Part shown: positions 1,678-49,276 of the stretch, in pieces | Numbering within the stretch: the stretch's first letter is position 1 | Layout: each line of letters begins with the position of its first letter | IMG/VR virus record: IMGVR_UViG_3300045988_098886 | Direction: 5' to 3' (one strand) | DNA: 64,000 nucleotides | Origin: a virus | Made by a program: the position numbers and the translations under genes | The notes under the pieces: model-generated | The model's input: the letters and a program-made list of their open reading frames with translations, nothing else | Database searches by the model: none | What the model was told of the DNA's origin: nothing

Positions 1678-1849
1678 TCTGTTCGTCTTTTAAAATTGTA
1701 CATATATCCTTCATCTCTTGTAATGTATAATGTAACATCTTCTCTATTTGGATACGTAGTTCGGCTGGAAGAAATTGGGTACAAAGACTAACTGCTTGTA
1801 AAAAGGTGGTTACGCTTTTCAGCTTAGCCACCAACAATTCTTGGTTCAT
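1628..1849 (-). CDS. hypothetical protein (73 aa)
   Basis: ORF track, ATG at 1849. It overlaps 1447..1677 by 50 nt in another frame, so one of the two boundaries may be wrong. Confidence 0.4.
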   Translation of the reverse strand: MNQELLVAKLKSVTTFLQAVSLCTQFLPAELRIQIEKMLHYTLQEMKDICTILKDEQNVKPTIRSRTRRKSSV

Positions 1850-2462
1850 GATAATACAATAATGTAGGATTGTCTCTATGAATGTCTAGAGCATCAATTC
1901 CATTAATTGCTAATTCTTGTTGACACTGTTCAACATCGAATTTAGATGTAATAAGGTGATAGCCATGTAGAGTGGGAACAACAAGCTTTACTTTATTATC
2001 CTCATTACCTCTACATGAATTTACAATTTTTATAATGGCGTTTAATTTCCATTTATCACAAGTATCAACATCTACTAACCTTAATAGATTTCTCCCACTT
2101 TGTGCAGGAAGTTCCCCACAGACATGGTCCCAAACCCTTGGAGCTTGGAAGGCATTTCCTTCCATAAGCATCCTTGCAAGTTTCTCTTGAGCTCCACATG
2201 CTGTCTTGAAGTAACTTCTTTTATTAAGATGAATGTATGCTCTAGCATTATTGTTTTGGCACAGTTCAATTATCTTTTGTTTCTTTTCCTCAAGATAATC
2301 AATACTGTGTATATAATAGGCTTTAATGAGTCTTGCCCCATTATTGCCTCTCCCAGTTACATTTCCATCCTTCTTTCGTTGAATTACTTGAAGAAAGTAG
2401 AAATCATCATTAGATTCAAACTTTAAGTTTTCCTCTATTAAATCAAAATTATCAATTGTCAT
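1824..2462 (-). CDS. hypothetical protein (~212 aa)
   Basis: The ORF track gives 1824..2504. I prefer the ATG at 2462 (MTIDNFDLIE..), which overlaps the upstream stop at 2452-2454. No motif recognised. Confidence 0.6.
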   Translation of the reverse strand: MTIDNFDLIEENLKFESNDDFYFLQVIQRKKDGNVTGRGNNGARLIKAYYIHSIDYLEEKKQKIIELCQNNNARAYIHLNKRSYFKTACGAQEKLARMLMEGNAFQAPRVWDHVCGELPAQSGRNLLRLVDVDTCDKWKLNAIIKIVNSCRGNEDNKVKLVVPTLHGYHLITSKFDVEQCQQELAINGIDALDIHRDNPTLLYYHEPRIVGG

Positions 2463-2742
2463 ACACTTTCTCAACTTTGCAGTTTCCATAATAATGGCTG
2501 CCATCTACTGAATAAGTTAAATTCCCTTTAGTAAATGTAGCCCAATAATCCAAATCCCAACCGTTTGTTTCATGTTCAAGCTCCTCGAATCCTAGCTGTT
2601 CCATTACCTCTAGAACTATATCAAAAGGACACTTACCAACAAAACACTCCGGTAATGTTTCCATGATAGCTAGGAAATTAGCTTTAACATCTCTAAGAGA
2701 TTGAGTTAACAATTCTCCGTGATTTATATATGTTTCAGTCAT
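2452..2742 (-). CDS. hypothetical protein (96 aa)
   Basis: ORF track, gene strand, coupled to its neighbours. Confidence 0.55.
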   Translation of the reverse strand: MTETYINHGELLTQSLRDVKANFLAIMETLPECFVGKCPFDIVLEVMEQLGFEELEHETNGWDLDYWATFTKGNLTYSVDGSHYYGNCKVEKVYDN

Positions 2743-2911
2743 TTGGAATTACATCTAAGTTTGTTAAATAAAATCTGTCATCGTTTAGGTCTTTCTGTAC
2801 GAAATACCCATTAACTTCGACATTTTCTCCATTAAGAGTATGTATCATTACTACTCTATCTTGGTCGTATTTCTGGAGAATTTCAATTAATTGTCCTACT
2901 AGTATTCCCAT
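2735..2911 (-). CDS. hypothetical protein (58 aa), below the ORF-track cut-off
   Basis: My translation: MGILVGQLIEILQKYDQDRVVMIHTLNGENVEVNGYFVQKDLNDDRFYLTNLDVIPND. Its ATG overlaps the Thg1-like stop (TAATG at 2911) and its TGA overlaps the next ATG. Confidence 0.5.
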   Translation of the reverse strand: MGILVGQLIEILQKYDQDRVVMIHTLNGENVEVNGYFVQKDLNDDRFYLTNLDVIPND

Positions 2912-3696
2912 TATAATAGTGTTTCAATATATTCCCTTCCTTCTCCTGTAAAGATTGGAATTTCATCATCAATAAACCAGTGACTTCTCAAAACTGAACC
3001 CGTGGCTTGGTAACATTTCTTTATGCAGCAACTCCCTCTTTTAAATTTGGTAGGATAATTGTTCCAATTAATTCCTTTTTCTTGAAATAATAGCTCTTGG
3101 ATTTGTTTAGAATCCAAACCTTCTAATCTTTTATGGGAGAAATTAGCCTGTCCTACAGAGGAAATACTATTCCTAATAGCGTCTTGTTGCCGCCATAAGA
3201 TACAATTAGTTACTTCCTCCTTTGGAATGTTAAAGCATCTGGCATCAAACACTGCTCCAGCTTTAGCAGAACGCTTGTACGAATTAGTTAGTTCGTCATT
3301 ATCTAATTTCCCATTATAGGAAAGCTCTACAATTTGTCTCTGGAATTGTCTATTGAAAGCAAGAGTTGCCATAGATGCAGCTACACTACATACTTTCTGG
3401 ACGTTATAATCGAACCAAGCATCAGTAGTAAGTTTCTGATAGTCAATAAGTACTAAAGTTATTTCATCAGATTGTGTATATCCTAAAACACATCCCTGAA
3501 TGTTCTCACATAAATATTTCATTGTTTGTTGCATAGCACTACACATAACTTCATCAAAGGGCTTATTAAAACCCTTTGTGAATGTATGAAATGCTTTTCC
3601 ATCCAGCCTTATAATAACTGGAGTACGCCTAGTCAAAAATGTTTTAGAACGATTCTCATAGTAAGATTTCATTCTATCTCCCAAGTTGTCTATCAT
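2911..3696 (-). CDS. Thg1-like protein (tRNA-His guanylyltransferase family; 3'-5' nucleotide addition / tRNA 5'-end repair)
   Basis: GDRMKSYYE .. PVIIRLDGKAFHTFTKGFNKPFD .. GYTQSDEITLVL matches the Thg1/TLP signature (GDRMKxYE, RLDGxxFHxF, KPxD, SDE). Confidence 0.85.
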   Translation of the reverse strand: MIDNLGDRMKSYYENRSKTFLTRRTPVIIRLDGKAFHTFTKGFNKPFDEVMCSAMQQTMKYLCENIQGCVLGYTQSDEITLVLIDYQKLTTDAWFDYNVQKVCSVAASMATLAFNRQFQRQIVELSYNGKLDNDELTNSYKRSAKAGAVFDARCFNIPKEEVTNCILWRQQDAIRNSISSVGQANFSHKRLEGLDSKQIQELLFQEKGINWNNYPTKFKRGSCCIKKCYQATGSVLRSHWFIDDEIPIFTGEGREYIETLL

Positions 3697-3697
3697 A

Positions 3698-4612
3698 CTA
3701 AAACTTTCCCTCGTTTGGTTGTAAACAGGTCAAACCTTGTTCTCTCCACATCTCTACACATTTGTAATTGTCTTCAAGAACGAATTGAACATTATATTTT
3801 CCCTTAATATTGTCCTCGTAGATTTTCTTCTTACATTCAGCTCCGGGACTGTAATCCTTAACTGGACGGAAGAATAGTTCATCAACCTTAATATCATGCT
3901 TAGCCAACCATTCTTTAGTAGCTGCTACGATTTCAGGAGTGCCTTCTCTACCAGTGACAATAAATACTTTACACTTCTCATACATACGTCTAACAAGTGT
4001 ACAAGTACCTTCAATAGCAATATCATTCAACATGCCTTCAGCCGCACCATCGCCATAGTAAGGTCTACCAGTAGTATTCAAACATAAAGTAGCATCCATA
4101 TCCACCAATATAACAGGGTGACCTCCGTCTACATGCTCGGCACTCTTACTTAACATATTTTTAATATCCTCTTGGATAATAAAATCACGGTATCTTCTCC
4201 AAGTGTCTTTAATTACCTTAGCTCCCATTGGCTGCTCACGCATTGCATCACGACGAATACATTCATCAACTGAAACAAAGAAATCCTTAAATTCCAGTTC
4301 ATATTCAAATTCTGTAATGGAATTAGCAACTTTAATGATGTCTTCCCACCACTTTACCTCTTTGGGATTAAGATTCATGTTGTCTATAACAATGTTATAT
4401 CCTTTTCTAGTTGCTTCACAAGCAAAAGAATGCTTAAGTTCAGTTACTAGCCCTTCTCTGTTCGGAACCCAATATTCTCCAAGCATGTTACGAATATCGT
4501 CATTATTGAAACGGACTCTATGTTCTGGGTCTTCTTTAGCCCATGCCTTTGCCCAGGTTGATTTACCAGAGGCTTGAATACCTCTACAAAGTATTAATTT
4601 TCGTTTTTCCAT
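3698..4612 (-). CDS. pseT: polynucleotide 5'-kinase / 3'-phosphatase (T4 PseT-like Pnkp)
   Basis: N-terminal P-loop GIQASGKST. HAD phosphatase motif VILVDMDATL (DxDxT). The C-terminus ..CVEMWREQGLTCLQPNEGKF resembles the T4 Pnk end ..[20 protein letters not shown]. Confidence 0.9.
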   Translation of the reverse strand: MEKRKLILCRGIQASGKSTWAKAWAKEDPEHRVRFNNDDIRNMLGEYWVPNREGLVTELKHSFACEATRKGYNIVIDNMNLNPKEVKWWEDIIKVANSITEFEYELEFKDFFVSVDECIRRDAMREQPMGAKVIKDTWRRYRDFIIQEDIKNMLSKSAEHVDGGHPVILVDMDATLCLNTTGRPYYGDGAAEGMLNDIAIEGTCTLVRRMYEKCKVFIVTGREGTPEIVAATKEWLAKHDIKVDELFFRPVKDYSPGAECKKKIYEDNIKGKYNVQFVLEDNYKCVEMWREQGLTCLQPNEGKF

Positions 4613-4812
4613 TACTCACGGTACACTAATTGATTAATTACTCCTTCTTTACCTTCGTATGTAGCTCCTACTATTTGTTCGAGATTTTCATCTGGATACT
4701 CATCCCCATTTTGTTCTCGAATAATCTCCATAGCCCTAAAAGCATTACGAGCAGCGACTATAATTATCCCTGCTTCGTAATTCCCATAAAATTCATTAGT
4801 ATATAAATACAT
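4612..4812 (-). CDS. hypothetical protein (66 aa)
   Basis: ORF track. It has 1-nt overlaps with both neighbours. Confidence 0.5.
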   Translation of the reverse strand: MYLYTNEFYGNYEAGIIIVAARNAFRAMEIIREQNGDEYPDENLEQIVGATYEGKEGVINQLVYRE

Positions 4813-5267
4813 TACTTTACAGCTCTATATAGTTCAATTACACTGTGCATAGTATAGTTACGGTACGCTTCTTCAACAAGCTCTTGAGCTTTAACTGTCT
4901 CTGTTCTAGACAATTCTGGAACCATAAACATTCCATCCTTGGTTTCAATAACAAAAGTAATTCCTTCTACTATTGGATTCTTCTCCGCATCGGGATATCC
5001 ATAGAACATAAAGCCACCAAATGGTATTGCACTAAATCTATACAAGTTGTCTTTAATGTTGTCAAATGGTTTATCGGTTAGTTTGTCTGGAAGAGGAGTT
5101 TCACAATCAAGTTTATATTTCTTTCTCCATCTGATTTTTACCACAGATTCATTTACGGTATATTCAAGGTAGTCATCTCCTACCATACTTGGAATTTTAG
5201 GCAGTAAAGCCCAAAATAATTTGCCAATGTTTTCGTCTACGATTTGTTTTACTTCTTTACTAGTCAT
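4812..5267 (-). CDS. hypothetical protein (151 aa)
   Basis: ORF track. It lies between the pnkp and RNA ligase genes. Confidence 0.65.
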   Translation of the reverse strand: MTSKEVKQIVDENIGKLFWALLPKIPSMVGDDYLEYTVNESVVKIRWRKKYKLDCETPLPDKLTDKPFDNIKDNLYRFSAIPFGGFMFYGYPDAEKNPIVEGITFVIETKDGMFMVPELSRTETVKAQELVEEAYRNYTMHSVIELYRAVK

Positions 5268-5279
5268 TTTATTAATTTT

Positions 5280-6653
5280 TTAAGATTCTGATTCAATATC
5301 AACTTCCCCCTTATCAAGGGCTTTACCTTCTCCATCTAAGAACTTGAAACACTTCAATTTAAATGCTTCTGATTTCATGTTCTCAATCTTGATTACAATT
5401 CCTTCATGTGGAACTTTATTATCACAAGTTGGAGAGTTACATTCCATATAGAAGTTCTTATCGTTAGCTAACTTTGACAAGAAATTCTCATTCCAGTGTT
5501 CAGATGGGTCTAAGTCAGGGTATAAATCCTTTGCATAACCATAATAATATTGCTCAACCGGAACAAGACCTACCATTTGAGCCCATAATTGTACTTCACG
5601 AGCAGAGAACTCATGTACTTTACCGCTCACATCTGTAATAGTTACACGATAAATTTGCACTTTAAAATGCTTTCCATATGTATAAGCTTCATCTCCTACA
5701 GGCGGCAGACAACCATAATCATAATTCTTTTGGATATAACCACCATTAGGTAAGAATCCAATAATTTCATAATAAGCAGTCATACCTTTAGAAAGACATG
5801 GACGAACAATGTCATCAGCATACTTCCATACATCGACTCCGTAGAATCCACCTTGAACACTTTTGTTGTAATACTGGTTCTTAATTACAGAGCGAGAAGA
5901 ATATAAATAATCATACTTATCAAATTCTTCTCCAGTTAACCAACGAGCAATCTTCTGCTTCCAGTTTAATTCCTGCTTACACAATACATAAGCAGATATT
6001 CCAGAAGTCCCATGAACTTTAGAAGTTATACTGATAAGGTCACTGGGATGTAAAACATGTGGACACTTTTTGATAAGGACGGTATCATAGTGGAATCTGA
6101 ACTGATTCTCGATGATTTTATCAAGTCCCTTAGGCTGTTTTCCTTTACCTGAATTTCCTGAGCCCGGTGCTCCTGGAGTGCGAGTATTTTTAGGGATATA
6201 CTTCTTATTAACCCAAAATGTTTTTCCGTCATGTTCAATAGAATCAAATTCTGTTCCTTCTTCTACTTTAAGTTCAACATTTACTGTTGACATTACCCAA
6301 TTTTCAAGAACTACAATAGGGATGATAAATCCTTCAGACAACTCACCACGCAATCTGATAGCCTTCACACGACCATTGTCGTCAAACATTCCAGTCTTCG
6401 TCTGGTCTACATTTAGCTCACCATGACGATACAAATTTGCATAGCTAAGGAATTTGGGATTGATACAACAAGCTGTCGGGAAATATACATACAACCCCGG
6501 TTCGGAATCAATACCAGTAATGATATTAAATCCATCAATACAGCAACATTTTAACTTCGTAACCTCTGGGTCAGAGTGTTTATGGAAGTTATCAATTTTT
6601 ACAATCTTTGCCAAATAGTTTACATTGGCATTTTTACTTTGGATTAATTTCAT
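5280..6653 (-). CDS. ATP-dependent RNA ligase (Rnl2-like motif set)
   Basis: Nucleotidyltransferase motif I SKVHGTSG (cf. Rnl2 KIHGTN), motif IV HEGIVIK, motif V FKLK. A separate DNA ligase is present at 8072..9262, and this gene sits beside pnkp. Confidence 0.75.
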   Translation of the reverse strand: MKLIQSKNANVNYLAKIVKIDNFHKHSDPEVTKLKCCCIDGFNIITGIDSEPGLYVYFPTACCINPKFLSYANLYRHGELNVDQTKTGMFDDNGRVKAIRLRGELSEGFIIPIVVLENWVMSTVNVELKVEEGTEFDSIEHDGKTFWVNKKYIPKNTRTPGAPGSGNSGKGKQPKGLDKIIENQFRFHYDTVLIKKCPHVLHPSDLISITSKVHGTSGISAYVLCKQELNWKQKIARWLTGEEFDKYDYLYSSRSVIKNQYYNKSVQGGFYGVDVWKYADDIVRPCLSKGMTAYYEIIGFLPNGGYIQKNYDYGCLPPVGDEAYTYGKHFKVQIYRVTITDVSGKVHEFSAREVQLWAQMVGLVPVEQYYYGYAKDLYPDLDPSEHWNENFLSKLANDKNFYMECNSPTCDNKVPHEGIVIKIENMKSEAFKLKCFKFLDGEGKALDKGEVDIESES

Positions 6654-6973
6654 AATTCAATTAATTGTTCTGGTGTTATAAAATGAAAATCACTGTCCTC
6701 AAATGCAAGGTGTAATTTGTAGGTTTCAAAGCTTTTAATTGCTTCAATGTAGTCTTCTACAGTACAATCCTCATCGAATATTCCTGAAGACCATACATGT
6801 ATTTCTCCATTTGCTTTAAAGAAACTGACAAACTCTAAAGTATCAGTTTTTATAGCTAAACAGGAGTAACCAACAGGCTTAAGAAATTTATCCTTAGATA
6901 TTTCTCTATAGCCCATGAATAAGGCAGCTTTCTTAAGGTTCATATATACTCCATTCTTTAGACAAGACTGCAT
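6650..6973 (-). CDS. hypothetical protein (107 aa; the start may be an internal Met)
   Basis: ORF track. Confidence 0.55.
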   Translation of the reverse strand: MQSCLKNGVYMNLKKAALFMGYREISKDKFLKPVGYSCLAIKTDTLEFVSFFKANGEIHVWSSGIFDEDCTVEDYIEAIKSFETYKLHLAFEDSDFHFITPEQLIEL

Positions 6974-7139
6974 CAGTGTAGAACTTGGTCACCACATAGT
7001 TTACATGTGAATCCTTGATTCCACATATAATTTTTCCGTCTTCCATGAAGTACATTCTAGTCTTGCCTTCTATAGTTAAACAAACTGTAAGACCACTTTC
7101 CATAAAGGAGATAGCATCTCCAAATCCAAATTTTTCCAT
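6933..7139 (-). CDS. hypothetical protein (68 aa)
   Basis: ORF track. Confidence 0.5.
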   Translation of the reverse strand: MEKFGFGDAISFMESGLTVCLTIEGKTRMYFMEDGKIICGIKDSHVNYVVTKFYTDAVLSKEWSIYEP

Positions 7140-8071: not shown

Positions 8072-9262
8072 TTAGTCATAATCTCTAATACATTTTAGTA
8101 CTGGCTGCAGTGGAGTTCCTTCTTCTGAATAATAGAAGAACTTAACAGTAGCCATCTTTCCGATAATATCATCGAGATTGTCTCTATATTCCTGCTTTAA
8201 TTCTCTACTTCCCATTGGCTTAGCCTTAAATTCTATCCCATCTTCAGTTACACAGGTGAAACACATATCTTCATCACGAAGACCTTCTGAAATACCAGTG
8301 ATTTCAAATTCCGCATCCTGATATTCCTTGATTTTAATCATGTCATTAGTTCGTTTACCAAAGCCATATAGCTTACTCGGATTACGAATAACAACACCTT
8401 CAAAACCTTCACCTACATACTTATCATGTAACTTTTTAATATTTGCCCAACCACTAACTTCTTCTTGAGGAACAAGTCTTATTTGTAAATCCTTAGTAAG
8501 AATAGGGGCAAATAAATCAGAAGTAATATTTAACTCTTCTGCCATTTCAAGCATTTGCTCATTTCTTTGAGTGAAATCAGCTTCTGCATCCATAATGTCA
8601 TACATCCAAAACTCTAATTCTAGAGTTCTAGGGTCGTCTTGCTCCAATCTTGCAGTACCAGAAATCCATTGAAGTGGTCTACCATGAGAATATAGTTCTC
8701 CGTCAATAGATACATCTGGATGATTCTTAAACCATTCGATTAAAGCTGGATTATTTCTTATGTGTACAGTAGCTGGGTCATAGTCTCCTCCACCTCTACT
8801 TGAAGAATGAACTTCACCATCTTTAAAATAGAAGGAACAGCGGACTCCATCAATCTTACGAGATGCTAGCCACACTTTGACCTTATCATATACACTTGTT
8901 GCAACTTTATTAAAGTCTTTAGCAAGCATATGTTTTTTACAACCATTAGCATCGGTCTTATGCTCTGGAAGAATTTCATCAAGTTGGGCTTTAGTATAAT
9001 CTTCGATTTCTCCCTCAATTAACTTATAGCCTTTATCTTGATATTTTTTCAGGTGGGAATTATATTCGAGTTCTGCCTGTTGTGTGACAGTTCTCTTTAC
9101 CTTACCTTTAGTAATAGTTATATCTGGCTGTGCTGTAACCTTACCTTGATATTGGTAAGTATTTCTTTTAATTGTAAAGCCAGAGAGTTCACTTCCTTCA
9201 CAGGAAATTTCAACTACTCTGATTTTACCCTTTGAGTCTTTAGAAATTAAAGTATTCCTCAT
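8072..9262 (-). CDS. ATP-dependent DNA ligase
   Basis: Motif I ASRKIDGVRC (KxDGxR), motif IV EGVVIR, motif V MIKIKE, followed by an OB-like C-terminal part. Confidence 0.85.
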   Translation of the reverse strand: MRNTLISKDSKGKIRVVEISCEGSELSGFTIKRNTYQYQGKVTAQPDITITKGKVKRTVTQQAELEYNSHLKKYQDKGYKLIEGEIEDYTKAQLDEILPEHKTDANGCKKHMLAKDFNKVATSVYDKVKVWLASRKIDGVRCSFYFKDGEVHSSSRGGGDYDPATVHIRNNPALIEWFKNHPDVSIDGELYSHGRPLQWISGTARLEQDDPRTLELEFWMYDIMDAEADFTQRNEQMLEMAEELNITSDLFAPILTKDLQIRLVPQEEVSGWANIKKLHDKYVGEGFEGVVIRNPSKLYGFGKRTNDMIKIKEYQDAEFEITGISEGLRDEDMCFTCVTEDGIEFKAKPMGSRELKQEYRDNLDDIIGKMATVKFFYYSEEGTPLQPVLKCIRDYD

Positions 9263-15282: not shown

Positions 15283-16059
15283 CTATACTGTTAAGATGTC
15301 TTTTAGTAGCAAAGTTTTCTCAACCTTGTTCATTATATCTTTTCCTCCATCATTACTAATTAATTGAGTAAATGCATTATATACAGTGAACATATTTACC
15401 GGCTGGTCTTCTGGAATGAAATATTCAGATTTCTTATCGAATAATAATTTATAAGCATCTATTGGAGTACTAGTTGCCAACTTTACTTTTCCATATCCAG
15501 AATCATATGCCATATTAATAGAGTTTCTCACCCACATTCCAAGATTTCTCTCGATTTGTTCATCAGTTCTTGCAAACTCTGTATTGTGTAATTTTTCCAA
15601 CCATACTTTCATATCATTAGTCTGTTCCATTAGAGTGGTTACAGGTCTATAATTGATAGCTTTTTCTGGTGATAATTCTTGAATACTCAAGAAAGAAGGA
15701 TTGAATACACAGAGATTTGTACAAGCTCTATTAAGTCCACCTCTATAAATCTTTACTATTGGCTTACGTACATCTAATCCATATATAAAACCAACTACTT
15801 CATCGTGATTATCAAATGAATACTCTTCTGGCATTACTGCCTGTATCCATACACGATTATAAGTAATATCTTCCATATCTATTCCTCCATCTTTGGTTTT
15901 AGTTATCTGGTCTGGCATCTTTACTTGGATTCTGAAATCATCAGTAAATTTAGACATTCTTTCCAAGAAAGGTGTTACGTAAGCTTCAGTTCTAAAATAC
16001 TCATTGTCTTTAATAACTGTAGCTTTACCTTTCAATAATTCAGGCAGCGTTATTTCCAT
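15283..16059 (-). CDS. hypothetical protein (258 aa)
   Basis: ORF track. No motif recognised. Confidence 0.65.
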   Translation of the reverse strand: MEITLPELLKGKATVIKDNEYFRTEAYVTPFLERMSKFTDDFRIQVKMPDQITKTKDGGIDMEDITYNRVWIQAVMPEEYSFDNHDEVVGFIYGLDVRKPIVKIYRGGLNRACTNLCVFNPSFLSIQELSPEKAINYRPVTTLMEQTNDMKVWLEKLHNTEFARTDEQIERNLGMWVRNSINMAYDSGYGKVKLATSTPIDAYKLLFDKKSEYFIPEDQPVNMFTVYNAFTQLISNDGGKDIMNKVEKTLLLKDILTV

Positions 16060-16066
16060 TTATTAT

Positions 16067-17203
16067 TTATTTATCGTTATTGTTAAGCAGTTTTTCATTC
16101 AAAACTTCCCACACATCTTCATCATAACGAATCTCTATCAATTTTATGTCATTGTCTTTGCAATATTGTCTAACATACTCGTCGCGAGCCTGCTGTTGTT
16201 CAAATTTAAAAGTTCCTCCAAAAGCCATCTCAGGCTCATAATGTTGAATACCATTATATTCAATGAAAGTGTTATGCTCTGGTAAATAAAAATCAATATA
16301 AGCTCTGCCAGAGGTATTAATCTCGTTTGGTATTTGAATAGTATACTCTCTTACAAATTTAATTTTTTCATTTAACAATACATTGCATATTTCTCCTTCT
16401 CCTTTAGAACTAGAACAACTAGGACATCCTTCACCTTGTATATGGGAAGCAGGAGTTTGCCAAAATTCACCATGTTCGGGACATAAAATGCAAATTTTTG
16501 TATGGCTACCTGCATAGTTCACCTTTGAATAATCATATCGTTCTCCGTGAACATATTTGGCGTCTTTTAGAAAGTCATCTAGGGACTTTCTTGTATACTC
16601 ACTATGCTTTTCAGCCGAACACTTGGGACATCCCACATACTTATGAAATTGTCCAGGAAGAACTTCAAAATCACCGTGCTTAGGACATGTTATAGTTACT
16701 TTAGTGTCCCACCCAGTATACACAGTTTTACTATAATCTAATTCTGGGTGGAATTTTTTAAACTCTTGTATATAAGTATCAGTAAACTTTCTAAGCCTTT
16801 CTTCTTCTTTACATTTTAAGCAGCCAACTCCTTTAGATAAGGTGCTAACAAGTGCATTGAATTCTCCATGATTCGGACAAATCAGGGTAACAGAACCTCT
16901 ATTTCCAGTATATCTTACTTTGGAGTAATCATATTTGTCTCCAAATGTATTATATAAACGATTGATAAATTCTTCATTCGATAATCTAAGTTTAGTACTT
17001 TTAGCTAAAGAAGCACACTTATGGCAGCCATCACCTCTCCTAACATGCATTTGAGCTATAACTTCAAAGTCTCCATGCTCTGGACAGGTGACAGTTATTT
17101 TGTTTTGACTGCCAGTATATATAGATTTAGAATAATCATATTTATCCCCATGCTTTTCTTTAGCTCTAGCTATCCATTCTTCGGTGGTGAGCTTTTTGGG
17201 CAT
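16067..17203 (-). CDS. putative homing-type endonuclease: four Zn-ribbon repeats plus a Vsr/DUF559-like PD-(D/E)XK domain
   Basis: Four tandem repeats of about 60 aa: (G)xKYDYSK.xYxG....(I/V)T..CP.HG(D/E)F........G.GC.(K/S)C. The C-terminus IDFYLPEHNTFIEYNGIQHY resembles the DUF559/Vsr core. Confidence 0.5.
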   Translation of the reverse strand: MPKKLTTEEWIARAKEKHGDKYDYSKSIYTGSQNKITVTCPEHGDFEVIAQMHVRRGDGCHKCASLAKSTKLRLSNEEFINRLYNTFGDKYDYSKVRYTGNRGSVTLICPNHGEFNALVSTLSKGVGCLKCKEEERLRKFTDTYIQEFKKFHPELDYSKTVYTGWDTKVTITCPKHGDFEVLPGQFHKYVGCPKCSAEKHSEYTRKSLDDFLKDAKYVHGERYDYSKVNYAGSHTKICILCPEHGEFWQTPASHIQGEGCPSCSSSKGEGEICNVLLNEKIKFVREYTIQIPNEINTSGRAYIDFYLPEHNTFIEYNGIQHYEPEMAFGGTFKFEQQQARDEYVRQYCKDNDIKLIEIRYDEDVWEVLNEKLLNNNDK

Positions 17204-18799
17204 TTATTGTAATACAATTCTTCCGTCAATAATTTTTGCTCCATCTACAATTGAATAATCAGTACAAGCCGGAGTATTTCCGAAATTCTTGTGAATCCAT
17301 TCAGAACTTCCGAATAAAGAGCCTACTGATTTATATGTAAACCTACGTCCATAGGTTGTTGCAGATTGATGTAAATCTCCCTTTACGAATACAACCTTAT
17401 TTCCAAATATCTGTTTGTTATCAAGATATTCATTAATAAAGTTCTCTGTCTTTACATCTAAAGTCAGAGGAAGATTCTTAAACATATCCTTATTATCCTT
17501 TCCATGACAGAGGACAAATGTTGTGTCTCCTACATTGAACTCTCCAATGAACTTATCAAAGATTGTACAATCTACACCTTTATGAGTAAGAATTGCTTCT
17601 AAAGCTACATTGGCGGCATATCCAAAATCGCCGTCATGATTTGATTCCCCGACACAGATATACTTCATTTTGTTATAGTTCATGTGGTTTAATGTATCAA
17701 AGAATTCTGCCATACATTCGATAAATGTATGGATTTGTTCTTTATTACACATGTTTTGTGGCAAAGAATGTCCACCACGAGTAGTCTGACCATTATATCC
17801 ATCAAGAGAATCTCCAAGATTACAAATATAGATGTTATTGAATCCTCCATATAAAGCATTCAGTCTGAACAATTCATCAGTAATCAGTCTCAATCGTCTT
17901 TCTACTTCAGCCTTATCATAAGGATTAGAATAGATTGACAGCGAAGATACATATGCTCCAATGTGCATATCTGACAGATAAATGATTATATCTTGTTTAC
18001 CACAAGACTTCTTTGGGACATACTTAGTAAGGTTTGTGAGATTCAATCCATCTAATTCAATATGGATTCCTTCTTCCAGTTTTCTTTTCAATTCAACATT
18101 TTCAAGAGCATATTTCTTAAGAAGAAGTCTATCATTTTTAATGGATTGTTCCTCCATTGTTCTAAGGAAATCATTTTCCTTTTCACGCATTTGCATATTA
18201 ACTAACTCTTCTTGAGTGTGTTCCTCAATAATATGAGGTGCAAATGGAGCTACAGCTTTAGTAATACTGAATACTCGGAGAATACGTTTAAAATCAATAA
18301 GAGAATATTCTGGGAAATATCTACTTACTTCTCTTTGAGTAATAGACATTCCATAATATGAATACATACGATGTATGTTGTTCATTTCATCCCTTGTAAG
18401 TCTTCCTGTAAGAGGGGCCTTGTCCTTTCTTAGAACTTTAAATTCATAGAACTTAATCTTTCCGTCCTCATCACGAATAAGATTAACACTATTTCTATCG
18501 TCGTCTGCTTCAAGTTGGACTTGTTCCAAAGTAGTATCATCAGATACTTGTTCTTCAACCGGCTGTGAGAATATAGAACTCTTATCTTCAAGAGATTTTT
18601 CCCACAATTCATTGATAGCATCCATATCTTCTTTACTTACCATTCCTTCTTTGTAATGATTGGAGATATTTTCATACGTATCTTCAAAATACTTTTTAGG
18701 AAGTTTATTGGCTTTAGTAAAGTCCGACTTTGTAGTTTCTAGTTCAACTAACTGTGATAAACGTGTGATAAAATTAGTAATTGTTTTTTTGTAAATCAT
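17204..18799 (-). CDS. metallophosphoesterase-domain protein (Mre11/SbcD-like nuclease candidate)
   Basis: YLSDMHIG (DxH), NLGDSLDG (GDxxD), GESNHDGD (GNHD-like), CHGKD, KGDLHQ. Confidence 0.55.
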   Translation of the reverse strand: MIYKKTITNFITRLSQLVELETTKSDFTKANKLPKKYFEDTYENISNHYKEGMVSKEDMDAINELWEKSLEDKSSIFSQPVEEQVSDDTTLEQVQLEADDDRNSVNLIRDEDGKIKFYEFKVLRKDKAPLTGRLTRDEMNNIHRMYSYYGMSITQREVSRYFPEYSLIDFKRILRVFSITKAVAPFAPHIIEEHTQEELVNMQMREKENDFLRTMEEQSIKNDRLLLKKYALENVELKRKLEEGIHIELDGLNLTNLTKYVPKKSCGKQDIIIYLSDMHIGAYVSSLSIYSNPYDKAEVERRLRLITDELFRLNALYGGFNNIYICNLGDSLDGYNGQTTRGGHSLPQNMCNKEQIHTFIECMAEFFDTLNHMNYNKMKYICVGESNHDGDFGYAANVALEAILTHKGVDCTIFDKFIGEFNVGDTTFVLCHGKDNKDMFKNLPLTLDVKTENFINEYLDNKQIFGNKVVFVKGDLHQSATTYGRRFTYKSVGSLFGSSEWIHKNFGNTPACTDYSIVDGAKIIDGRIVLQ

Positions 18800-19920: not shown

Positions 19921-20283
19921 TTAAAATGGTAAATATTCGTGAAGTATCTTTCCAATCTGTTTTGCCATCTCGGCTGGAGTTTTAATTCCAAATGTGGGGA
20001 ACTCTGTACAGCCATACATAAAGTCCTCACACATAATAGCAAGCCCCTTTATAAACTTCTCTGGAAGGGGGTCTTTAGCAGTAATCTGCATTAATATCTT
20101 ATAAGGAGTGATATCTGGCTTTTGCTGTTTGGCTTTCATAGTCAAATGGCAAGTCAGAGCAATCACTGCAAACTTATTATTGACGTCAACATTCAAATAT
20201 CCGAGAGAAAAATTCTCGTTATAAATGTCTTTCATTTCTTCATACGTCATATCGTAATATTCCATTAAATAGGTGTCTCCCAT
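19921..20283 (-). CDS. hypothetical protein (120 aa)
   Basis: ORF track. Confidence 0.6.
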   Translation of the reverse strand: MGDTYLMEYYDMTYEEMKDIYNENFSLGYLNVDVNNKFAVIALTCHLTMKAKQQKPDITPYKILMQITAKDPLPEKFIKGLAIMCEDFMYGCTEFPTFGIKTPAEMAKQIGKILHEYLPF

Positions 20284-21299
20284 GGATTTACTGTATAAAA
20301 TGCAACCATGCGCAGTAATTTAGTAAATTCTGCAAATCCTCTTAACATTTCTTTCTTTGTGACTTTATATACTCCAGCAAAGTAATTGGGAACTGTAGAT
20401 ATTAATAACATATTAGCTTTCATATCTGGATTTTTAAGTCCATATATCTTTTCAGCAGCCAACATTAACATCCAACCATACATTCCCATTTGTCGATAGT
20501 AGTGATATTGTTCCCAACTTTCACTAAATCGAGTCAAATAATGACCAGTAGTTTTTAAGTCATTCAATGTGATAAGGTTCTCATCCGGACATATTGTGTA
20601 ATTATCCAGTTTAGCCTTTAGCTTTAATATGAACGGCTCATGTTCAGGCACACTTACTTCAACATCAATCAAAACCGCTTGTTCATTTAAAGACATAGGT
20701 GGAGTCATTATATAAGAAGGGTTTAACAAAGACTGTATCTCTGTATTTCTTCTTGCTGAATCCAAACAGGCTTGTAACCTTTCCCTTGATTTAGCATCCA
20801 AATAAATTGGAGTTCTAGCTTTATCAAAACTATCTCCATATTCGTATGTCTTACGTTGTACGAAGTAGTCATCACATTTAATTCTAAGGGTTTCTATCCT
20901 TTCTTCTGTCATTTTCCCTTTGTAGTAGTCAATTTTATCAGACGCGGCTATAATATCATCTTCTGTGACTACACCATTTTTACAAAATGTAGGATAGAGT
21001 TCATCAGCCATAAATCCTGCTTTTGCTGTCGGTCTATCAACCGATTCTACTAAGACAAAATCATTAGGCTGTAATATTAACTCATGAACAGCAGAACCAA
21101 ACACTAGAGAATCGGAATAGATAGTTTTTATTCCTTCGAAATATAATTTAGGAGACCCTCCTTGTTCAGGGTTTATATATTTAAGTCTCGAATTACTGAT
21201 ATAATCTCTATATCCATTTCCGAAATACTCATCATCACTGATGTCAAGTATTCGGAGTGTTTCTACAAGGGGACGTAACTTAATATCCTCAAGCTTCAT
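20265..21299 (-). CDS. PD-(D/E)XK exonuclease, RecE/exonuclease VIII-like (DUF3799-type)
   Basis: YISNSRLKYINPEQGGSPKLY..SLVFGSAVHELILQP and later LNDLKTTG fit the pattern S.S.LK..sP..y...fGsa.H..vL and DLKT that I recall for this family. Confidence 0.5.
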   Translation of the reverse strand: MKLEDIKLRPLVETLRILDISDDEYFGNGYRDYISNSRLKYINPEQGGSPKLYFEGIKTIYSDSLVFGSAVHELILQPNDFVLVESVDRPTAKAGFMADELYPTFCKNGVVTEDDIIAASDKIDYYKGKMTEERIETLRIKCDDYFVQRKTYEYGDSFDKARTPIYLDAKSRERLQACLDSARRNTEIQSLLNPSYIMTPPMSLNEQAVLIDVEVSVPEHEPFILKLKAKLDNYTICPDENLITLNDLKTTGHYLTRFSESWEQYHYYRQMGMYGWMLMLAAEKIYGLKNPDMKANMLLISTVPNYFAGVYKVTKKEMLRGFAEFTKLLRMVAFYTVNPWETPI

Positions 21300-21519
21300 T
21301 TACCTGTAACTCAAGTTTATAGGTTGCATTGGGAGCATCTAATTCATCAGCGGATTCATATACATACATAAGTCCTTCTTCGAAGTTCATATCAATACAA
21401 TATACTTTGTCTCCCGCTTTATATTTACCAATGTCCTTGATAAATACACAATTCATAAAAGCTATAAAAAGATTATCGCATAGGTCCCAACTTCCCCAAG
21501 TAAATAATTGTTTTTCCAT
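21289..21519 (-). CDS. hypothetical protein (76 aa)
   Basis: ORF track. Confidence 0.5.
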   Translation of the reverse strand: MEKQLFTWGSWDLCDNLFIAFMNCVFIKDIGKYKAGDKVYCIDMNFEEGLMYVYESADELDAPNATYKLELQVNEA

Positions 21520-22028
21520 TAACCGTAGGTTTTCATAAAGCAGTAGGCATCCATAATTTCGTCCTTACAAAGAGAGAAAACCTTATACATAGGAAAGTCA
21601 GAAGTTCTTTCAGTGTGATATACCAATGCAGGAAGTCCTGAATTGTGACATTTCAGTACATTACTAATTGAATCGTCTATAAATACATCAACTTTACCTT
21701 TAATCATATCAGCTTTATTGCCATGCTGATAGACCATTTGATAAATTGGAGCTTTAGGGAATCCATTCATCTCCAACCACTTCTTAGTCCATTCTTTGTT
21801 ATTTACTCTCTTTGTGCAATACAGAGCTGGCTGGAAATCCGGCATATTAATAACCTTCAAACCAAGCCAGAAATCTCTGTCTTTGGATAATACCTGCTGC
21901 ACGTTTTTAGTAATTATACTATCTTCGAGCATACGTGGATTATTCTTTGTATCAAAATACTCACAATATGCTCCCCAAAAGTCGGCTAGACAATCGTCAA
22001 TGTCCAGTCCAATTCTAAATCTCTTCAT
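21519..22028 (-). CDS. 5'(3')-deoxyribonucleotidase (HAD, NT5C-like)
   Basis: N-terminus RIGLDIDDCLADF (DxDxx.aDF) and a late VFIDDS motif. Confidence 0.6.
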   Translation of the reverse strand: MKRFRIGLDIDDCLADFWGAYCEYFDTKNNPRMLEDSIITKNVQQVLSKDRDFWLGLKVINMPDFQPALYCTKRVNNKEWTKKWLEMNGFPKAPIYQMVYQHGNKADMIKGKVDVFIDDSISNVLKCHNSGLPALVYHTERTSDFPMYKVFSLCKDEIMDAYCFMKTYG

Positions 22029-22045: not shown

Positions 22046-22258
22046 TTATAAAGCGTCTATATCAATGACATCGCCTACTTGAGCATTAGCTGCTTCAACG
22101 ATATCAACAAACTCATTCCAATCTCCAGGATAATCTAAATCCCAGAGATTTACATAAGTTTCAATGATTTTATCCTTAGCTTCCTGAAGACTTCTGGCTG
22201 TAACTTTTTCAATCCAGACGCTATCAGATGTGCCAAAAGGAACTACGTATGTGTTCAT
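22046..22258 (-). CDS. hypothetical protein (70 aa)
   Basis: ORF track. Confidence 0.5.
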   Translation of the reverse strand: MNTYVVPFGTSDSVWIEKVTARSLQEAKDKIIETYVNLWDLDYPGDWNEFVDIVEAANAQVGDVIDIDAL

Positions 22259-23058
22259 TCACAAACATCATCAAAGGTTTCAATAATATCAATCATCTCC
22301 TCTGGAAGAACATCCCATACTTGGTCAAAGATAGTTTGTGGCATTTTTTCGTAATAAGCATAAGCAATACTTCCAGCCATAGCTGCAATAGTATCACTAT
22401 CTCCGCCCATAGAAATAGCCAGTTTCAAACAATCTTCATAGTCTTCAGATTCCAGAAATGCAAGCAAAGCAATTGGAACGCTGCCTTGACAAGTAGAGTC
22501 AAAATGGTATCCCGGGCGAATTTCATCAAGAGTTTTTTCGGTATACTCAGGATAATAGTTATCCAAAACGTACCAAATTTGATTCTTAGTAATAGAATCA
22601 TGCTTGGCTCGATAAATAGCTAGTGCGATAGCTTGAGCGCCCTTTACTCCCTCTGGGTCATTATGAGAACACAGGGCAGAATTCTTGGCAAGTTCAAGAC
22701 ATTCTTTTGCGTTATGCGCATAGAATCCAACAGGACTAACACGCATAGCAGAACCATTTCCATAACTTCCATAAGGAACAGGATTATCTATCCATTTACG
22801 GAACATTCCTCCATATCCTCTATTGGGATGTTTCTTACACATTTCCTGAATACATTCTCCAAATTGCTCCGGAGTAGGATTCTTGTATTTCAAAATAGCA
22901 TTTGCTACTCCAATAGTACAAACTGTATCATCAGTAAAATCATTACCTGTTCTTACTAAACGAACAGCTTCATACAGTTTTGTTCTTCCAAATTTTGCTT
23001 CATAGGAGGAACCGCAGACATCTCCTGCGATTGCTCCAAATAGTACATAGTCCATCAT
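22255..23058 (-). CDS. ADP-ribosylglycohydrolase family protein (ARH/DraG-like)
   Basis: GAIAGDVCGSSYE near the N-terminus and MGGDSDTIAAMAGSIAYAYY near the C-terminus are the two hallmark metal-binding motifs. Confidence 0.8.
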   Translation of the reverse strand: MMDYVLFGAIAGDVCGSSYEAKFGRTKLYEAVRLVRTGNDFTDDTVCTIGVANAILKYKNPTPEQFGECIQEMCKKHPNRGYGGMFRKWIDNPVPYGSYGNGSAMRVSPVGFYAHNAKECLELAKNSALCSHNDPEGVKGAQAIALAIYRAKHDSITKNQIWYVLDNYYPEYTEKTLDEIRPGYHFDSTCQGSVPIALLAFLESEDYEDCLKLAISMGGDSDTIAAMAGSIAYAYYEKMPQTIFDQVWDVLPEEMIDIIETFDDVCE

Positions 23059-45389: not shown

Positions 45390-45414
45390 ATCTAATCTTT
45401 TAATTGTTAATAAG

Positions 45415-45487
45415 TACCCCGTGCTGGATTCAAACCAGCGACCCGCACATTAGAAGTGTGCTGCTCTATTCACTGAGCTAACGGGGC
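45415..45487 (-). tRNA. tRNA-Arg (anticodon UCU)
   Basis: Acceptor GCCCCGU/ACGGGGU, anticodon arm GCACA-CUUCUAA-UGUGC, T arm GCUGG-UUUGAAU-CCAGC. No encoded CCA. Confidence 0.9.
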
Positions 45488-46119
45488 AAGTGTAGGTATT
45501 TATCACGTTACACCTACAAGTCCGGCAATCCTGTCTTATATACCGCGTGAGCTGGCGGTCTAATGCCCAGTACAAAGACCGTAATCTCTGTGTGGGACTT
45601 TTGTCCATTTTAAAGTGCAGTGTGCTAGGATATACCTAACAAGTGCACTGTGTACTTCTAAACAGCACTCCTATGGAATTACCCAATGGTCTGTCACCTA
45701 TGCTAACAGAGGTAAGGGTCGAAATACATCTTCCTTACTTATCAGTTTTAAGGTTCAAGGGCTCTGGTTTAAGTACATTAATATAGCCCTTTGTTAAAAA
45801 AGTGTAAAGAGTGTGTTGTTACACCAAATGCTCTAGCTGGAGTTACCCGTATCTCGCTTTATCTTCTTCATTTATAGGTAGTTTCAACGAAGACCTTAAT
45901 ACGACATTATTTCATTCTTGATTCGGGGCTATCAGCAAGGCTTTCTACCATAATTACGTCCTTAATCGGACAACCTACTCGCAACTCTTTAAACGATGGC
46001 TACTTCCAAGCCTACGTCCTCTTTACTTTATATTTTGGAGAGCAGCCGTTCTCTCCATGTCCGGTTCGTGCTCTACGGAGCATACAAGGTTTCGATATTA
46101 TCGCAGAGGCCGGCTTCCC
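45488..46119 (-). ncRNA. candidate large structured non-coding RNA (about 630 nt, class unknown)
   Basis: No gene-strand ORF of 60 aa or more. Visibly GC-richer than the flanks. Many local helices, e.g. GGAGAG..CUCUCC, GGUCU..AGACC, GUAGGU..ACCUAC. It abuts tRNA-Arg. Confidence 0.4.
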
Positions 46120-46500
46120 TTACTCCGAACGGCTTTCTTTCAATTCTTCCCATGGAACGTACCAATAAGTTTCAAATTCTTCACCAGACAAGATTACATC
46201 GGAGTCTTCAAACTCAGTCCAACCCATGTCGCTTCTAAATCCTACAATACAGTCATCTTCACAACTTTCAGAATTATATCCTACTAAGACAGCTTCCTGA
46301 CCTTCAACGATAAAGGTTTCTCCAATGCATCTTTTTATTTCAGTAGGAATATGTTCTTCATACAGACTTTCAGGAACCATATACGTACTATCTGGACAAG
46401 GATGCCCATCAATTGCTTGGCAGAATATACATTCTCCCCATCTTTCATGTTCCATAAAATCTTGGATTTCAGGGAACGTAACCATTACATACTTTTCCAT
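46120..46500 (-). CDS. hypothetical acidic protein (126 aa)
   Basis: ORF track. Confidence 0.6.
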   Translation of the reverse strand: MEKYVMVTFPEIQDFMEHERWGECIFCQAIDGHPCPDSTYMVPESLYEEHIPTEIKRCIGETFIVEGQEAVLVGYNSESCEDDCIVGFRSDMGWTEFEDSDVILSGEEFETYWYVPWEELKESRSE

Positions 46501-46501
46501 A

Positions 46502-46615
46502 CTATCTTCCTTTTACTGAACCAGGTTTCTTGTTTGCTGCTTGGTAATCCTTACCTTGTCTGTCCCACCAATCTTGGCGAGCTTTAAGTCTTGCTAATTT
46601 CTTTTTATATTTCAT
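46502..46615 (-). CDS. possible small basic protein (37 aa)
   Basis: My translation: MKYKKKLARLKARQDWWDRQGKDYQAANKKPGSVKGR. It fills the gap between two genes. Confidence 0.3.
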   Translation of the reverse strand: MKYKKKLARLKARQDWWDRQGKDYQAANKKPGSVKGR

Positions 46616-46630
46616 GCTTTATAAATTTGA

Positions 46631-47032
46631 TTAATCCCACCAACTTCTCATTCTGTATGTTCTAATGAGATTATACAGATGTAGTGCTTTAGCCTGTCTC
46701 AAATCATCAAGATAGTAATCATTAATAGATTCAGGATGCCAAGATATAAATCTCTTCCAATTTTTACTGTTTATATAGGGAAGTTTCTTAGTATTGTTAT
46801 AGAGATAACCTTTTTGGTCTCTTTCCATAACAACATCGATTAACTTTATACACAGATTGATTTCAGAAACCATTTGTTCCCATCCACGTACCAGTTGAGA
46901 TTCAGCAAAATATTTGGACATTCTCTTAAGTTTGAATTGCTCTAACTCAAGCATATATGCCCAGTCCCAATCTCTATCTTCTTTAAGAAGTTTAGAGTAT
47001 TTTTTAACTGTTGTGCTTCTGTTTCTACTCAT
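46631..47032 (-). CDS. hypothetical protein (133 aa)
   Basis: ORF track. Confidence 0.6.
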   Translation of the reverse strand: MSRNRSTTVKKYSKLLKEDRDWDWAYMLELEQFKLKRMSKYFAESQLVRGWEQMVSEINLCIKLIDVVMERDQKGYLYNNTKKLPYINSKNWKRFISWHPESINDYYLDDLRQAKALHLYNLIRTYRMRSWWD

Positions 47033-47036
47033 ATAT

Positions 47037-47294
47037 TTATTCGTTCACATTGAATGTTTCCTTACACCACCCCATCCATGTTCTTTTTATATTTGTCAAT
47101 ATATTTTTTATAGAAAGAGATGGAATTTGGCGCATCAAATATATTACATACAATGTATTTACAATTGGACACAAAGTGATTACGAATGAAACAGGGTTAA
47201 TAGAAACCTCTATTTTTGCATGGTCACAAATAAATGTGTATGAAATGAGAGTAACTAAATACAATACAACTAAAAATAACAATAATGTATTCAT
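47037..47294 (-). CDS. membrane protein (85 aa)
   Basis: ORF track. Hydrophobic. Confidence 0.5.
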   Translation of the reverse strand: MNTLLLFLVVLYLVTLISYTFICDHAKIEVSINPVSFVITLCPIVNTLYVIYLMRQIPSLSIKNILTNIKRTWMGWCKETFNVNE

Positions 47295-47318
47295 AATCTA
47301 ATTAATTTTTAAAGTTAG

Positions 47319-47390
47319 TTGGGCTACTAGGATTCGAACCTAGACTACAACAGTCAAAGTGTTGTGTGCTAACCACTACACTATAGCCCA
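47319..47390 (-). tRNA. tRNA-Gln (UUG)
   Basis: Acceptor UGGGCUA/UAGCCCA, anticodon arm CAACA-CUUUGAC-UGUUG, T arm CUAGG-UUCGAAU-CCUAG. Confidence 0.9.
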
Positions 47391-47490
47391 ATAATCAGAT
47401 GGCTTTCTGCCTGTTTTACCTCTGACAGAAGAGGGGTCTACTTATCCTAACTCTAGTATCATTGTTGTTACATTGCTGTAAGCCATCTTT
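47391..47490 (-). ncRNA. ACAGCAA-family stem-closed small RNA, member 1 (Y-RNA-like architecture)
   Basis: 5' AAAGAUGGCUU-ACAGCAA .. AAGCCAUC-UGAUUAU 3'. It ends exactly at the tRNA-Gln 5' end. Confidence 0.6.
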
Positions 47491-47498
47491 ACTATTTT

Positions 47499-48304: not shown

Positions 48305-48306
48305 GA

Positions 48307-48717: not shown

Positions 48718-48744
48718 AAATTCTTAATCTTTAATTGTTGTAAG

Positions 48745-48829: not shown

Positions 48830-48834
48830 TTCCA

Positions 48835-49074: not shown

Positions 49075-49102
49075 AATCTAAAAAATTTAATTGTTAATAA
49101 TG

Positions 49103-49184: not shown

Positions 49185-49186
49185 AA

Positions 49187-49270: not shown

Positions 49271-49276
49271 AATATT

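Follow-up and report, generated by a model that had tools for sequence, protein, structure and literature searches.

A Thg1-like protein, a T4-type Pnkp, and a predicted Rnl5-like RNA ligase form a candidate RNA end-repair locus in an uncultured gut phage

Why would a phage keep three enzymes with RNA-end chemistry within a few kilobases of one another? The question is raised by a stretch of 64,000 nucleotides from IMG/VR virus record IMGVR_UViG_3300045988_098886, which is called the window here. In it, genes for a Thg1-like protein (TLP), a polynucleotide kinase/phosphatase (Pnkp), and an RNA ligase lie together on one strand. Direct observations are the identities of the three proteins, their domain architecture, and their intact catalytic motifs, along with the tight packing of the genes in one direction and the conservation of their co-occurrence. 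On balance, we lean toward the idea that the trio is a toolkit for repairing RNA ends, most likely those of tRNA, that have been damaged by ribonucleases of the host or of competitors, and that it serves counter-defense. The three genes are as follows.

5280-6653, minus strand: predicted ATP-dependent RNA ligase of Rnl5-like architecture, 457 amino acids (PHROG, fold model, and motifs)
3698-4612, minus strand: Pnkp, bifunctional polynucleotide 5'-kinase/3'-phosphatase of T4 type, 304 amino acids (Pfam, PHROG, and PDB)
2911-3696, minus strand: TLP, bacterial type, predicted templated 3'-5' RNA polymerase, 261 amino acids (Pfam, PHROG, and PDB)

An earlier reading of the window, made from its letters alone (the sequence-only reading), had placed the three open reading frames (ORFs) at exactly these coordinates, where they do lie, and Pfam, PHROG, and PDB alignments bear out its naming of the TLP and the Pnkp. 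The TLP passes the cutoffs of two Pfam models, Thg1 PF04446 (109.5 bits versus 29.2; E 1.4e-31) and Thg1C PF14413 (29.2 bits versus 26.3), and matches phrog_4717, labeled "tRNA-His guanylyltransferase" (8.9e-92). Its best solved relative is the TLP of Bacillus thuringiensis (BtTLP; 4kgk, E 3.7e-70), with eukaryotic Thg1 at 1e-9 to 1e-12. The sequence-only reading had allowed for a Thg1-like ORF that lacks its catalytic carboxylates, but D32, D77, and E78 are all present and align to the metal-site carboxylates D30, D75, and E76 of BtTLP, which are D29, D76, and E77 in hTHG1. Also, E12 and R28 of BtTLP have counterparts in E14 and R30. Where eukaryotic Thg1 (5xox) has the segment HINNLYN, the window protein has AIRNSISS, and the segment of BtTLP differs too; we take HINNLYN, following literature from the Jackman laboratory, to distinguish eukaryotic Thg1 from TLPs. 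As judged from these alignments, the protein is a bacterial-type TLP whose active site is intact. The metal-site carboxylates of BtTLP have been shown to be essential (PMC3701042), and TLPs mend 5'-truncated tRNAs in vitro in a reaction that requires a 5'-phosphate (PMC3061083, PMC3701042), which, according to PMC3701042 and PMC6471195, they activate with ATP or GTP.

The second protein has a kinase domain that is detected by AAA_33 (4.1e-14, above the cutoff) and a phosphatase domain that is detected by HAD_PNKP PF25109 (2.2e-25; 89.9 bits versus a cutoff of 27.6), and it matches phrog_505 (2.8e-60). The nearest structures, Pnkp1 (4xrp, 4.3e-24) and T4 Pnkp (1ltq, 9.5e-15), align to it end to end. 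The residues essential for the T4 kinase are K15, S16, D35, R38, D85, and R126 (PMC2831316). K15 and S16 are matched by K17 and S18 of the P-loop (G11-S18, which reads G11-x4-G-K17-S18), and D35, R38, and R126 are matched by D38, R41, and R125, respectively; D77 aligns to an Asp of Pnkp1 and, as aligned by HMMER, misses T4 D85 by a single residue. The DxDxT motif of HAD phosphatases is present as D171-M-D173-A-T175. The protein can thus be classed, by its domains and aligned residues, as a T4-type kinase/HAD-phosphatase in which these motifs are intact.

The ligase has no Pfam match of its own above threshold, and a phmmer comparison with PDB chains returned nothing even at E 10. It matches phrog_968, "RNA ligase" (5.5e-35), and its homologs at about 40% identity carry PF09414 (RNA_ligase) together with PF21189 (PHA02142 OB fold). 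A profile of 67 homologs, compared with the PDB, matched the nucleotidyltransferase core of T4 Rnl2 (1.8e-4, within A1 profile positions 264-368) and, separately, the OB domain of NgrRnl (residues 9-114; 7e-3). The AlphaFold (AF2) model of the protein has a predicted local distance difference test (pLDDT) score of 87.7 and a predicted template modeling (pTM) score of 0.84. In Foldseek comparisons, its best match is NgrRnl, over the full length (E 1.5e-13; TM 0.67-0.69, normalized to the target). REL1, Rnl2, Rnl3, Trl1, and Rnl1 match the core only (E 2e-7 to 1e-3), with the Rnl2 structures 2hvr, 2hvq, and 1s68 covering the core at a TM of 0.29-0.30 on the query, and DNA ligases match the model more weakly than RNA ligases do.

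The domain order of the ligase agrees with the fold match. An N-terminal OB module (about residues 1-150) is followed by a disordered linker (160-170) and, from about residue 190, by a nucleotidyltransferase domain, in which motifs I (T210-S-K212-V-H214-G215), Ia (S253-R254), III (E296), IV (E417-G418), and V (K432/K434) are invariant or nearly so in the 67 homologs; motif I of DraRnl has the form T-x-K-x-H-G (PMC1807946). The chain stops 23 residues past K434 of motif V, and there is no C-terminal domain. Because the NgrRnl fold match runs the full length, the OB module is N-terminal, and a C-terminal domain is missing, we assign the enzyme, on sequence and model together, a predicted Rnl5-like (DraRnl/NgrRnl) architecture and not that of Rnl2. 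The sequence-only reading had called the protein an Rnl2-like RNA ligase. "RNA ligase" stands, as does the likeness of its nucleotidyltransferase core to Rnl2, but the nucleotidyltransferase domain follows an OB module, the Rnl2-specific C domain is missing, and both the architecture and the full-length fold are those of Rnl5. The same reading had reckoned with the enzyme proving to be DNA specific; the model instead resembles RNA ligases, and a separate DNA ligase gene 1.4 kb away (8072-9262) argues that the enzyme at 5280-6653 is not the DNA ligase of the phage.

Within the Rnl5 class, the window ligase shares with Deinococcus DraRnl and Naegleria NgrRnl the combination of OB and nucleotidyltransferase domains, the lack of a C domain, the T-x-K-x-H-G motif, and the full-length fold. 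However, it exceeds them in length by about 115 residues, contains a disordered linker and insertions, and matches the DraRnl model TIGR02306 weakly, over residues 29-223 only, at 24.8 bits versus an equivalog cutoff of 151.15, so that it does not qualify as a DraRnl ortholog. Its score below the DraRnl cutoff and its extra length therefore point to a separate, long Rnl5-like subfamily. This subfamily holds 1,932 clusters at 50% identity, mostly phage or metagenomic; among its members are the proteins annotated as "RNA ligase" in some 300 mycobacteriophages and ligases of Gordonia and Microbacterium phages, cyanophages, and Lak megaphages. We found no biochemical characterization of the long subfamily in the literature.

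Two further observations concern this subfamily. First, six cysteines of the window ligase (C149, C225, C315, C358, C407, and C410) are invariant or nearly so across it, including the C407-x2-C410 pair just ahead of motif IV; judging from this conservation, they may form a metal site that has no described counterpart in DraRnl or NgrRnl. Second, the ligase ORF of Lak-A1 (20001-21539 of locus L003) is split under the standard genetic code and continuous when TAG is read as sense (table 15), a pattern that is consistent with stop-codon recoding in Lak phages.

The trio sits in a long co-directional array with minimal spacing between genes. Its surroundings, and the tRNA genes farther along the window, are listed here.

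45414-61600, minus strand: array of 24 tRNA genes for all 20 amino acids (ARAGORN and Rfam)
8072-9262, minus strand: separate ATP-dependent DNA ligase (DNA_ligase_A_M 1.9e-18; phrog_114 2.8e-55)
4812-5267, minus strand: orf151, between the ligase and Pnkp, without a Pfam, PHROG, or NCBIfam match
4612-4812, minus strand: orf66, with TAATG overlaps with both neighbors
1824-2911, minus strand: orf58, orf96, and orf226, companions downstream of the TLP by synteny

The ligase start overlaps the stop of the ORF upstream of it (ATGA), the orf151/orf66, orf66/Pnkp, and TLP/orf58 junctions are TAATG overlaps, and a single nucleotide separates the Pnkp stop from the TLP start. A consensus scan gave no convincing terminator between the trio genes, and every minus-strand terminator-like site lies inside an ORF. 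The scan was uninformative overall, with 7 terminator-like sites seen versus 3.5 +/- 2.0 expected, and its promoter part used the sigma-70 consensus, which may not apply to the host. Neither orf151 nor orf66 has a significant match in Pfam, PHROG, or NCBIfam.

Is the grouping more than an accident of this one genome? We compared 80 IMG/VR loci with a TLP 58-99% identical to that of the window, counting neighbors within 10-kb flanks, a limit that hides more distant ligases. Pnkp, or a kinase-only Pnk, lies within 10 kb of the TLP in 61 of the 80 loci, and a ligase does so in 28. Of the 41 contigs on which both TLP and ligase could be mapped, 39 have the ligase upstream, on the strand of the TLP, at 4.6-12.9 kb (median, 11.6 kb), and the remaining two are explained by contig permutation or duplication. 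All members of the clade carry the trio, usually over about 13 kb. The window order, LIG-x-x-PNKP-TLP, is shared with L007 and L008, the only related loci in which orf151 occurs. A second compact order, TLP-x-LIG-VWA-sigma70-Pnk, is found in seven loci (L046, L056, L058, L067, L068, L070, and L074), and its Pnk (14154-14606 in L046) is a protein of 150 amino acids with an AAA_33 kinase and no HAD phosphatase domain. The compact trio therefore arose twice, with different gene orders.

The association also repeats in independent lineages. In KashFlow (L091), an Omega-like mycobacteriophage, the TLP gene (15995-16696) lies 860 bp upstream of a polynucleotide kinase gene (17556-18509), and a ligase that belongs to the family of the window enzyme is encoded 15 kb downstream; the TLP, gene 118, is annotated as "tRNA nucleotidyltransferase" there and as "hypothetical protein" in sister phages. 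In Lak megaphages, a DnaB-type helicase gene stands between the ligase and the TLP, which lies 2.6 kb upstream. Since the trio is kept in every relative examined and the association recurs in two unrelated phage lineages, we consider the grouping more than chance. Universal linkage of TLP and ligase in phages is ruled out by the annotation of PMBT8, Bcp1, Fnu1, phage G, and BcepSauron, and the TLP-Pnk-ligase association is thus recurrent, not universal.

The variability of these arrangements invites another explanation, namely, that the three genes are functionally uncoupled, independent accessory genes of a variable early-gene block whose compactness in the window is an accident of deletion. 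The ligase-Pnkp interval varies between 0 and about 9 kb, and the TLP is found in at least three different places (following Pnkp, following orf96, or between the DNA ligase and the RNA ligase). Moreover, the close relative L001 has no TLP at this position, and several TLP phages show no linkage. We nevertheless see only a slim chance that the genes are unrelated, given their recurrence in actinophages, Lak phages, and previously reported bacterial operons and a complementary chemistry in which both the TLP and the ligase require the product of the kinase as their substrate.

What, then, might be the substrate? The tRNA array invites attention. ARAGORN places its 24 genes at 45.4 to 61.6 kb, and all 20 amino acids are represented, in agreement with the full set described in the sequence-only reading. 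Rfam confirms 23 of the 24 and detects no other RNA family in the window. The tRNA genes are contiguous and full length. Acceptor positions 1-3 are paired in all 24, and the only irregularities in the acceptor stems are a G1-U72 wobble in four tRNAs and one A-G at pair 5 of tRNA-Tyr. In the tRNA-His gene (53910-53993, minus strand), the preceding base is G and the discriminator is C73, so that the G-1:C73 pair is genome encoded, as had been claimed. With stems paired and genes contiguous, there is therefore no sign that maturation of the phage tRNAs calls for 5'-editing, splicing, or ligation. A role in tRNA 5'-editing or maturation was rejected on these grounds, and an earlier alternative, that the trio serves the maturation of unusual RNAs, gains no support: Rfam finds tRNAs only.

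The TLP might still perform housekeeping or quality control on phage tRNAs, restoring G-1 of tRNA-His or mending 5' ends that host RNase P has mis-cut on atypical phage tRNAs, independently of any host attack. C73 of tRNA-His is, according to PMC6471195, the template on which TLPs add G-1. TLPs occur widely among large phages that are rich in tRNAs, and that of Vibrio phage 1.170.O has a COG0617 (CCA-adding type) gene nearby. Five of the 24 tRNAs also have atypically long variable arms and perhaps are poorly handled by host processing. This explanation strikes us as improbable, however, because the G-1 of tRNA-His is already encoded, no acceptor stem requires editing, and cluster J mycobacteriophages carry a TLP yet only 1-2 tRNAs. 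Also, it leaves unexplained why a 5'-kinase and an RNA ligase are repeatedly linked to the TLP.

The five tRNAs in question are tRNA-Thr (51974-52057), tRNA-His (53910-53993), tRNA-Lys (54930-55015), tRNA-Cys (55160-55242), and tRNA-Trp (58146-58232), all on the minus strand. Their variable regions span 13-16 nucleotides, whereas tRNAs of these five kinds have short variable arms in cellular organisms; those of tRNA-Lys and tRNA-Trp fold into stems of 3-4 bp capped by GTAA or GAAA tetraloops. In all 24 genes, a C directly follows the discriminator, in a genome of 35% GC; CCA is encoded in none, and tRNA-Ile and tRNA-Trp have CC. No CCA-adding enzyme, Hen1, or RtcB was found among the 40 larger window ORFs scanned, with small ORFs only partly covered. 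A tRNA-like gene at 56906-56980 (minus strand) is given by ARAGORN a four-base anticodon, gcgt, in an 8-nucleotide loop; it is ambiguous between Arg and Thr and scores 56.9 bits in Rfam. Inside the array, between tRNA-Phe and tRNA-Leu, lies a gene for a 573-amino-acid protein (59764-61485, minus strand) with DUF2828 and DUF7788 domains that matches phrog 850, "RNA-binding protein" (3.5e-32). This protein could be a further component of RNA quality control. It was considered as a Ro60 and rejected, as it has no sequence match in the PDB and only the PHROG label to suggest RNA binding.

Metal-independent ribotoxins leave 2',3'-cyclic-phosphate or 3'-phosphate ends and 5'-OH ends. In the repair scheme that we favor, a ribotoxin would cut a tRNA to give such ends, and Pnkp would heal both of them, with its HAD domain restoring the 3'-OH and its P-loop kinase restoring the 5'-phosphate. 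If no nucleotides had been lost, the Rnl5-type ligase, adenylylated on K212, would pass AMP to the 5'-phosphate and seal the break, joining ends that the tRNA fold might hold together like a nick in a duplex. If 5' nucleotides of the acceptor stem had been lost, the TLP would use ATP or GTP to activate the 5'-phosphate that Pnkp has made and would add templated nucleotides in the 3'-to-5' direction opposite the 3' strand, including a lost G-1 opposite C73. The complete tRNA set of the phage would then represent a parallel strategy of replacement. The kinase would be the upstream step shared by TLP and ligase, which fits both the 1-nucleotide junction between Pnkp and TLP and the kinase-only Pnk of the second compact order, where the activity that both partners need has been kept and the phosphatase is gone. 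We infer on which substrates and in which order the enzymes act, that the TLP depends on the kinase of Pnkp, and that the purpose is counter-defense. As a whole, the counter-defense reading is plausible and fits the comparative data and earlier predictions (PMC2904730, PMC7824862, and PMC3706429).

Several points weigh against this repair scheme. We know of no nuclease of the host that truncates the 5' ends of tRNAs. The tight 3.7-kb cluster is common only to the window, L007, and L008; the "cassette" of the sequence-only reading therefore holds for the sub-lineage of the window and not for most relatives, in which about 11.6 kb separates the ligase from the TLP. In 15 of the 80 TLP loci, neither a Pnk(p) nor a ligase lies within 10 kb, and the annotated TLP neighborhoods of the unrelated PMBT8, Bcp1, Fnu1, G, and BcepSauron, which span phages of Staphylococcus, Bacillus, Fusobacterium, and Burkholderia, contain no ligase or Pnkp. 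The trio is also embedded in a large co-directional module for replication and nucleotide metabolism (dUTPase, DNA ligase, NrdD, and helicases), and its proximity could therefore partly reflect shared ancestry of this early-gene block. Finally, PMC5397189 describes Rnl5 enzymes as sealers of duplex nicks, for which sealing in the anticodon loop is not established and the physiological role is uncharted.

The same surroundings lend themselves to an explanation in terms of DNA. Pnkp and the Rnl5-type ligase might serve DNA replication or repair at nicks with a ribonucleotide 3'-OH, such as primer remnants or ribo-patches, with the TLP being unrelated. DraRnl joins an RNA 3'-OH to a 5'-phosphorylated DNA, and its loss sensitizes Deinococcus to radiation, as stated in PMC1807946 and PMC5397189. 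T4-type Pnkp acts on DNA ends as well, the neighbors of the trio include a dUTPase, an ATP-dependent DNA ligase, an SF1 helicase, NrdD, a DnaB-like helicase, and exonucleases, and the Lak phages have their DnaB-type helicase between TLP and ligase. Such a role would not account for a TLP that abuts Pnkp and follows the ligase or the Pnk through rearrangements or for the retention of a kinase-only Pnk together with TLP and ligase in the L046 type. Moreover, large tRNA sets co-occur with the trio, and published co-evolution with tRNAs in mycobacteriophages points to RNA (PMC3706429). We therefore judge a DNA-directed function rather unlikely.

A further possibility, which we regard as highly unlikely, would combine all three activities on a single lesion: Pnk(p) would phosphorylate a 5'-OH, the TLP would fill the duplex gap in the 3'-to-5' direction, templated by the intact strand, and the ligase would seal the remaining nick. 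If true, the pathway would be the RNA counterpart of gap-filling excision repair, for example, in the tRNA acceptor stem, and its targets would be acceptor-stem or 5'-end nucleases that are not yet recognized as anti-phage defenses. It would also be the first physiological role for bacterial-type TLPs.

How does the locus compare with systems already described? T4 Pnkp and Rnl1 repair tRNA-Lys that has been cleaved by PrrC. The window has the same family of healing enzyme, an ATP-dependent sealing ligase, and phage tRNAs; unlike in T4, its ligase is not an Rnl1, to which only the nucleotidyltransferase core matches (9do4, E 2.4e-4), and to our knowledge T4 has no TLP. The Pnkp1 of the Capnocytophaga gingivalis Pnkp1-Rnl-Hen1 system (4xrp/4xru) is the closest solved relative of the window Pnkp, whereas the window ligase has no PDB sequence match and belongs to a different fold class. 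No Hen1-like methyltransferase was found in the 10 ORFs scanned from 1.8 to 9.3 kb or among the larger window ORFs, with small ORFs partly scanned.

Mycobacteriophages of the Omega/Cjw1 type (clusters J, E, and L) have a ligase of the same family as that of the window, at 28-31% identity over the full length, and share its Pnkp family, and cluster J also has a TLP next to Pnk. These genes are dispersed over up to 15 kb, in phages with only 1-2 tRNAs. In 2013, Pope et al. described the Pnk, the RNA ligase, and the tRNAs of mycobacteriophages as a putative repair set whose members co-evolve, with Pnkp and RNA ligase proposed to act in RNA repair, citing Zhu, Yin, and Shuman 2004 (PMC3706429). 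The TLP of cluster J phages goes unmentioned there.

The closest precedents are predictions. Anantharaman, Iyer, and Aravind reported in 2010 that, among the genes linked to the bacterial Thg1 family, a polynucleotide kinase is the most persistent and an RNA ligase an occasional one; in their proposal, the 5'-phosphate comes from the kinase, and the copies in phages might help to repair RNA in the face of host defenses (PMC2904730). Iyer et al. in 2021 listed Thg1 as a sporadic enzyme of 5'-end restoration among the RNA-repair systems of jumbo phages (PMC7824862). The same three enzyme classes, a polynucleotide kinase that feeds both Thg1 and ligase, and the suggestion of anti-defense are common to those systems and the window. 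The earlier cases, in bacterial operons and a few jumbo phages, were predicted without locus-level detail, whereas the window comes from an abundant gut phage of about 185 kb and has, besides an Rnl5-type ligase and a complete tRNA set, a full-length T4-type Pnkp that abuts the TLP.

As for the phage itself, megablast of window positions 2500-7000 against 50,697 phage records returned no match. The ligase protein, named "MAG TPA: RNA ligase [Caudoviricetes sp.]" by one source, is found in identical form on hundreds of metagenome contigs, the longest of 180-197 kb, and the phage is therefore abundant, uncultured, and about 185 kb in size. Related records come from human faeces. Among the companions of the module, orf226 (1824-2504, minus strand) travels with it in every arrangement seen. 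It matches phrog_14949, labeled "unknown function," and has a confident AF2 model (pLDDT, 90.8), for which BFVD yields only uncharacterized phage proteins, including one of Campylobacter phage CP21. We considered orf226 as a fourth repair enzyme and rejected it, given that no PDB fold matched (best E, 0.036) and the profile comparison with the PDB was empty. Elsewhere in the window, a protein of the ADP-ribosylglycohydrolase family (22255-23058, minus strand; 3.8e-36) could plausibly act in counter-defense against ADP-ribosylating host systems.

The locus is a compact new example of a previously predicted system, not a new kind of system. What is added here is the reclassification of a ligase family as Rnl5-like, a compact trio that has arisen twice, a kinase-only variant, and the TLP beside Pnk in cluster J. 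The practical impact is modest, given that the idea has been in print since 2010 and that the phage remains uncultured. For the large family to which the ligase belongs, the long Rnl5-like assignment predicts nick-sealing rather than Rnl1-like loop-sealing chemistry. For bacterial-type TLPs, repair of tRNA 5' ends is known in vitro only. A TLP that abuts a full Pnkp, next to a ligase and with a full tRNA set in the same genome, offers a convenient and well-defined setting for testing an old prediction, namely, that 3'-5' polymerases contribute to anti-defense repair of tRNA.

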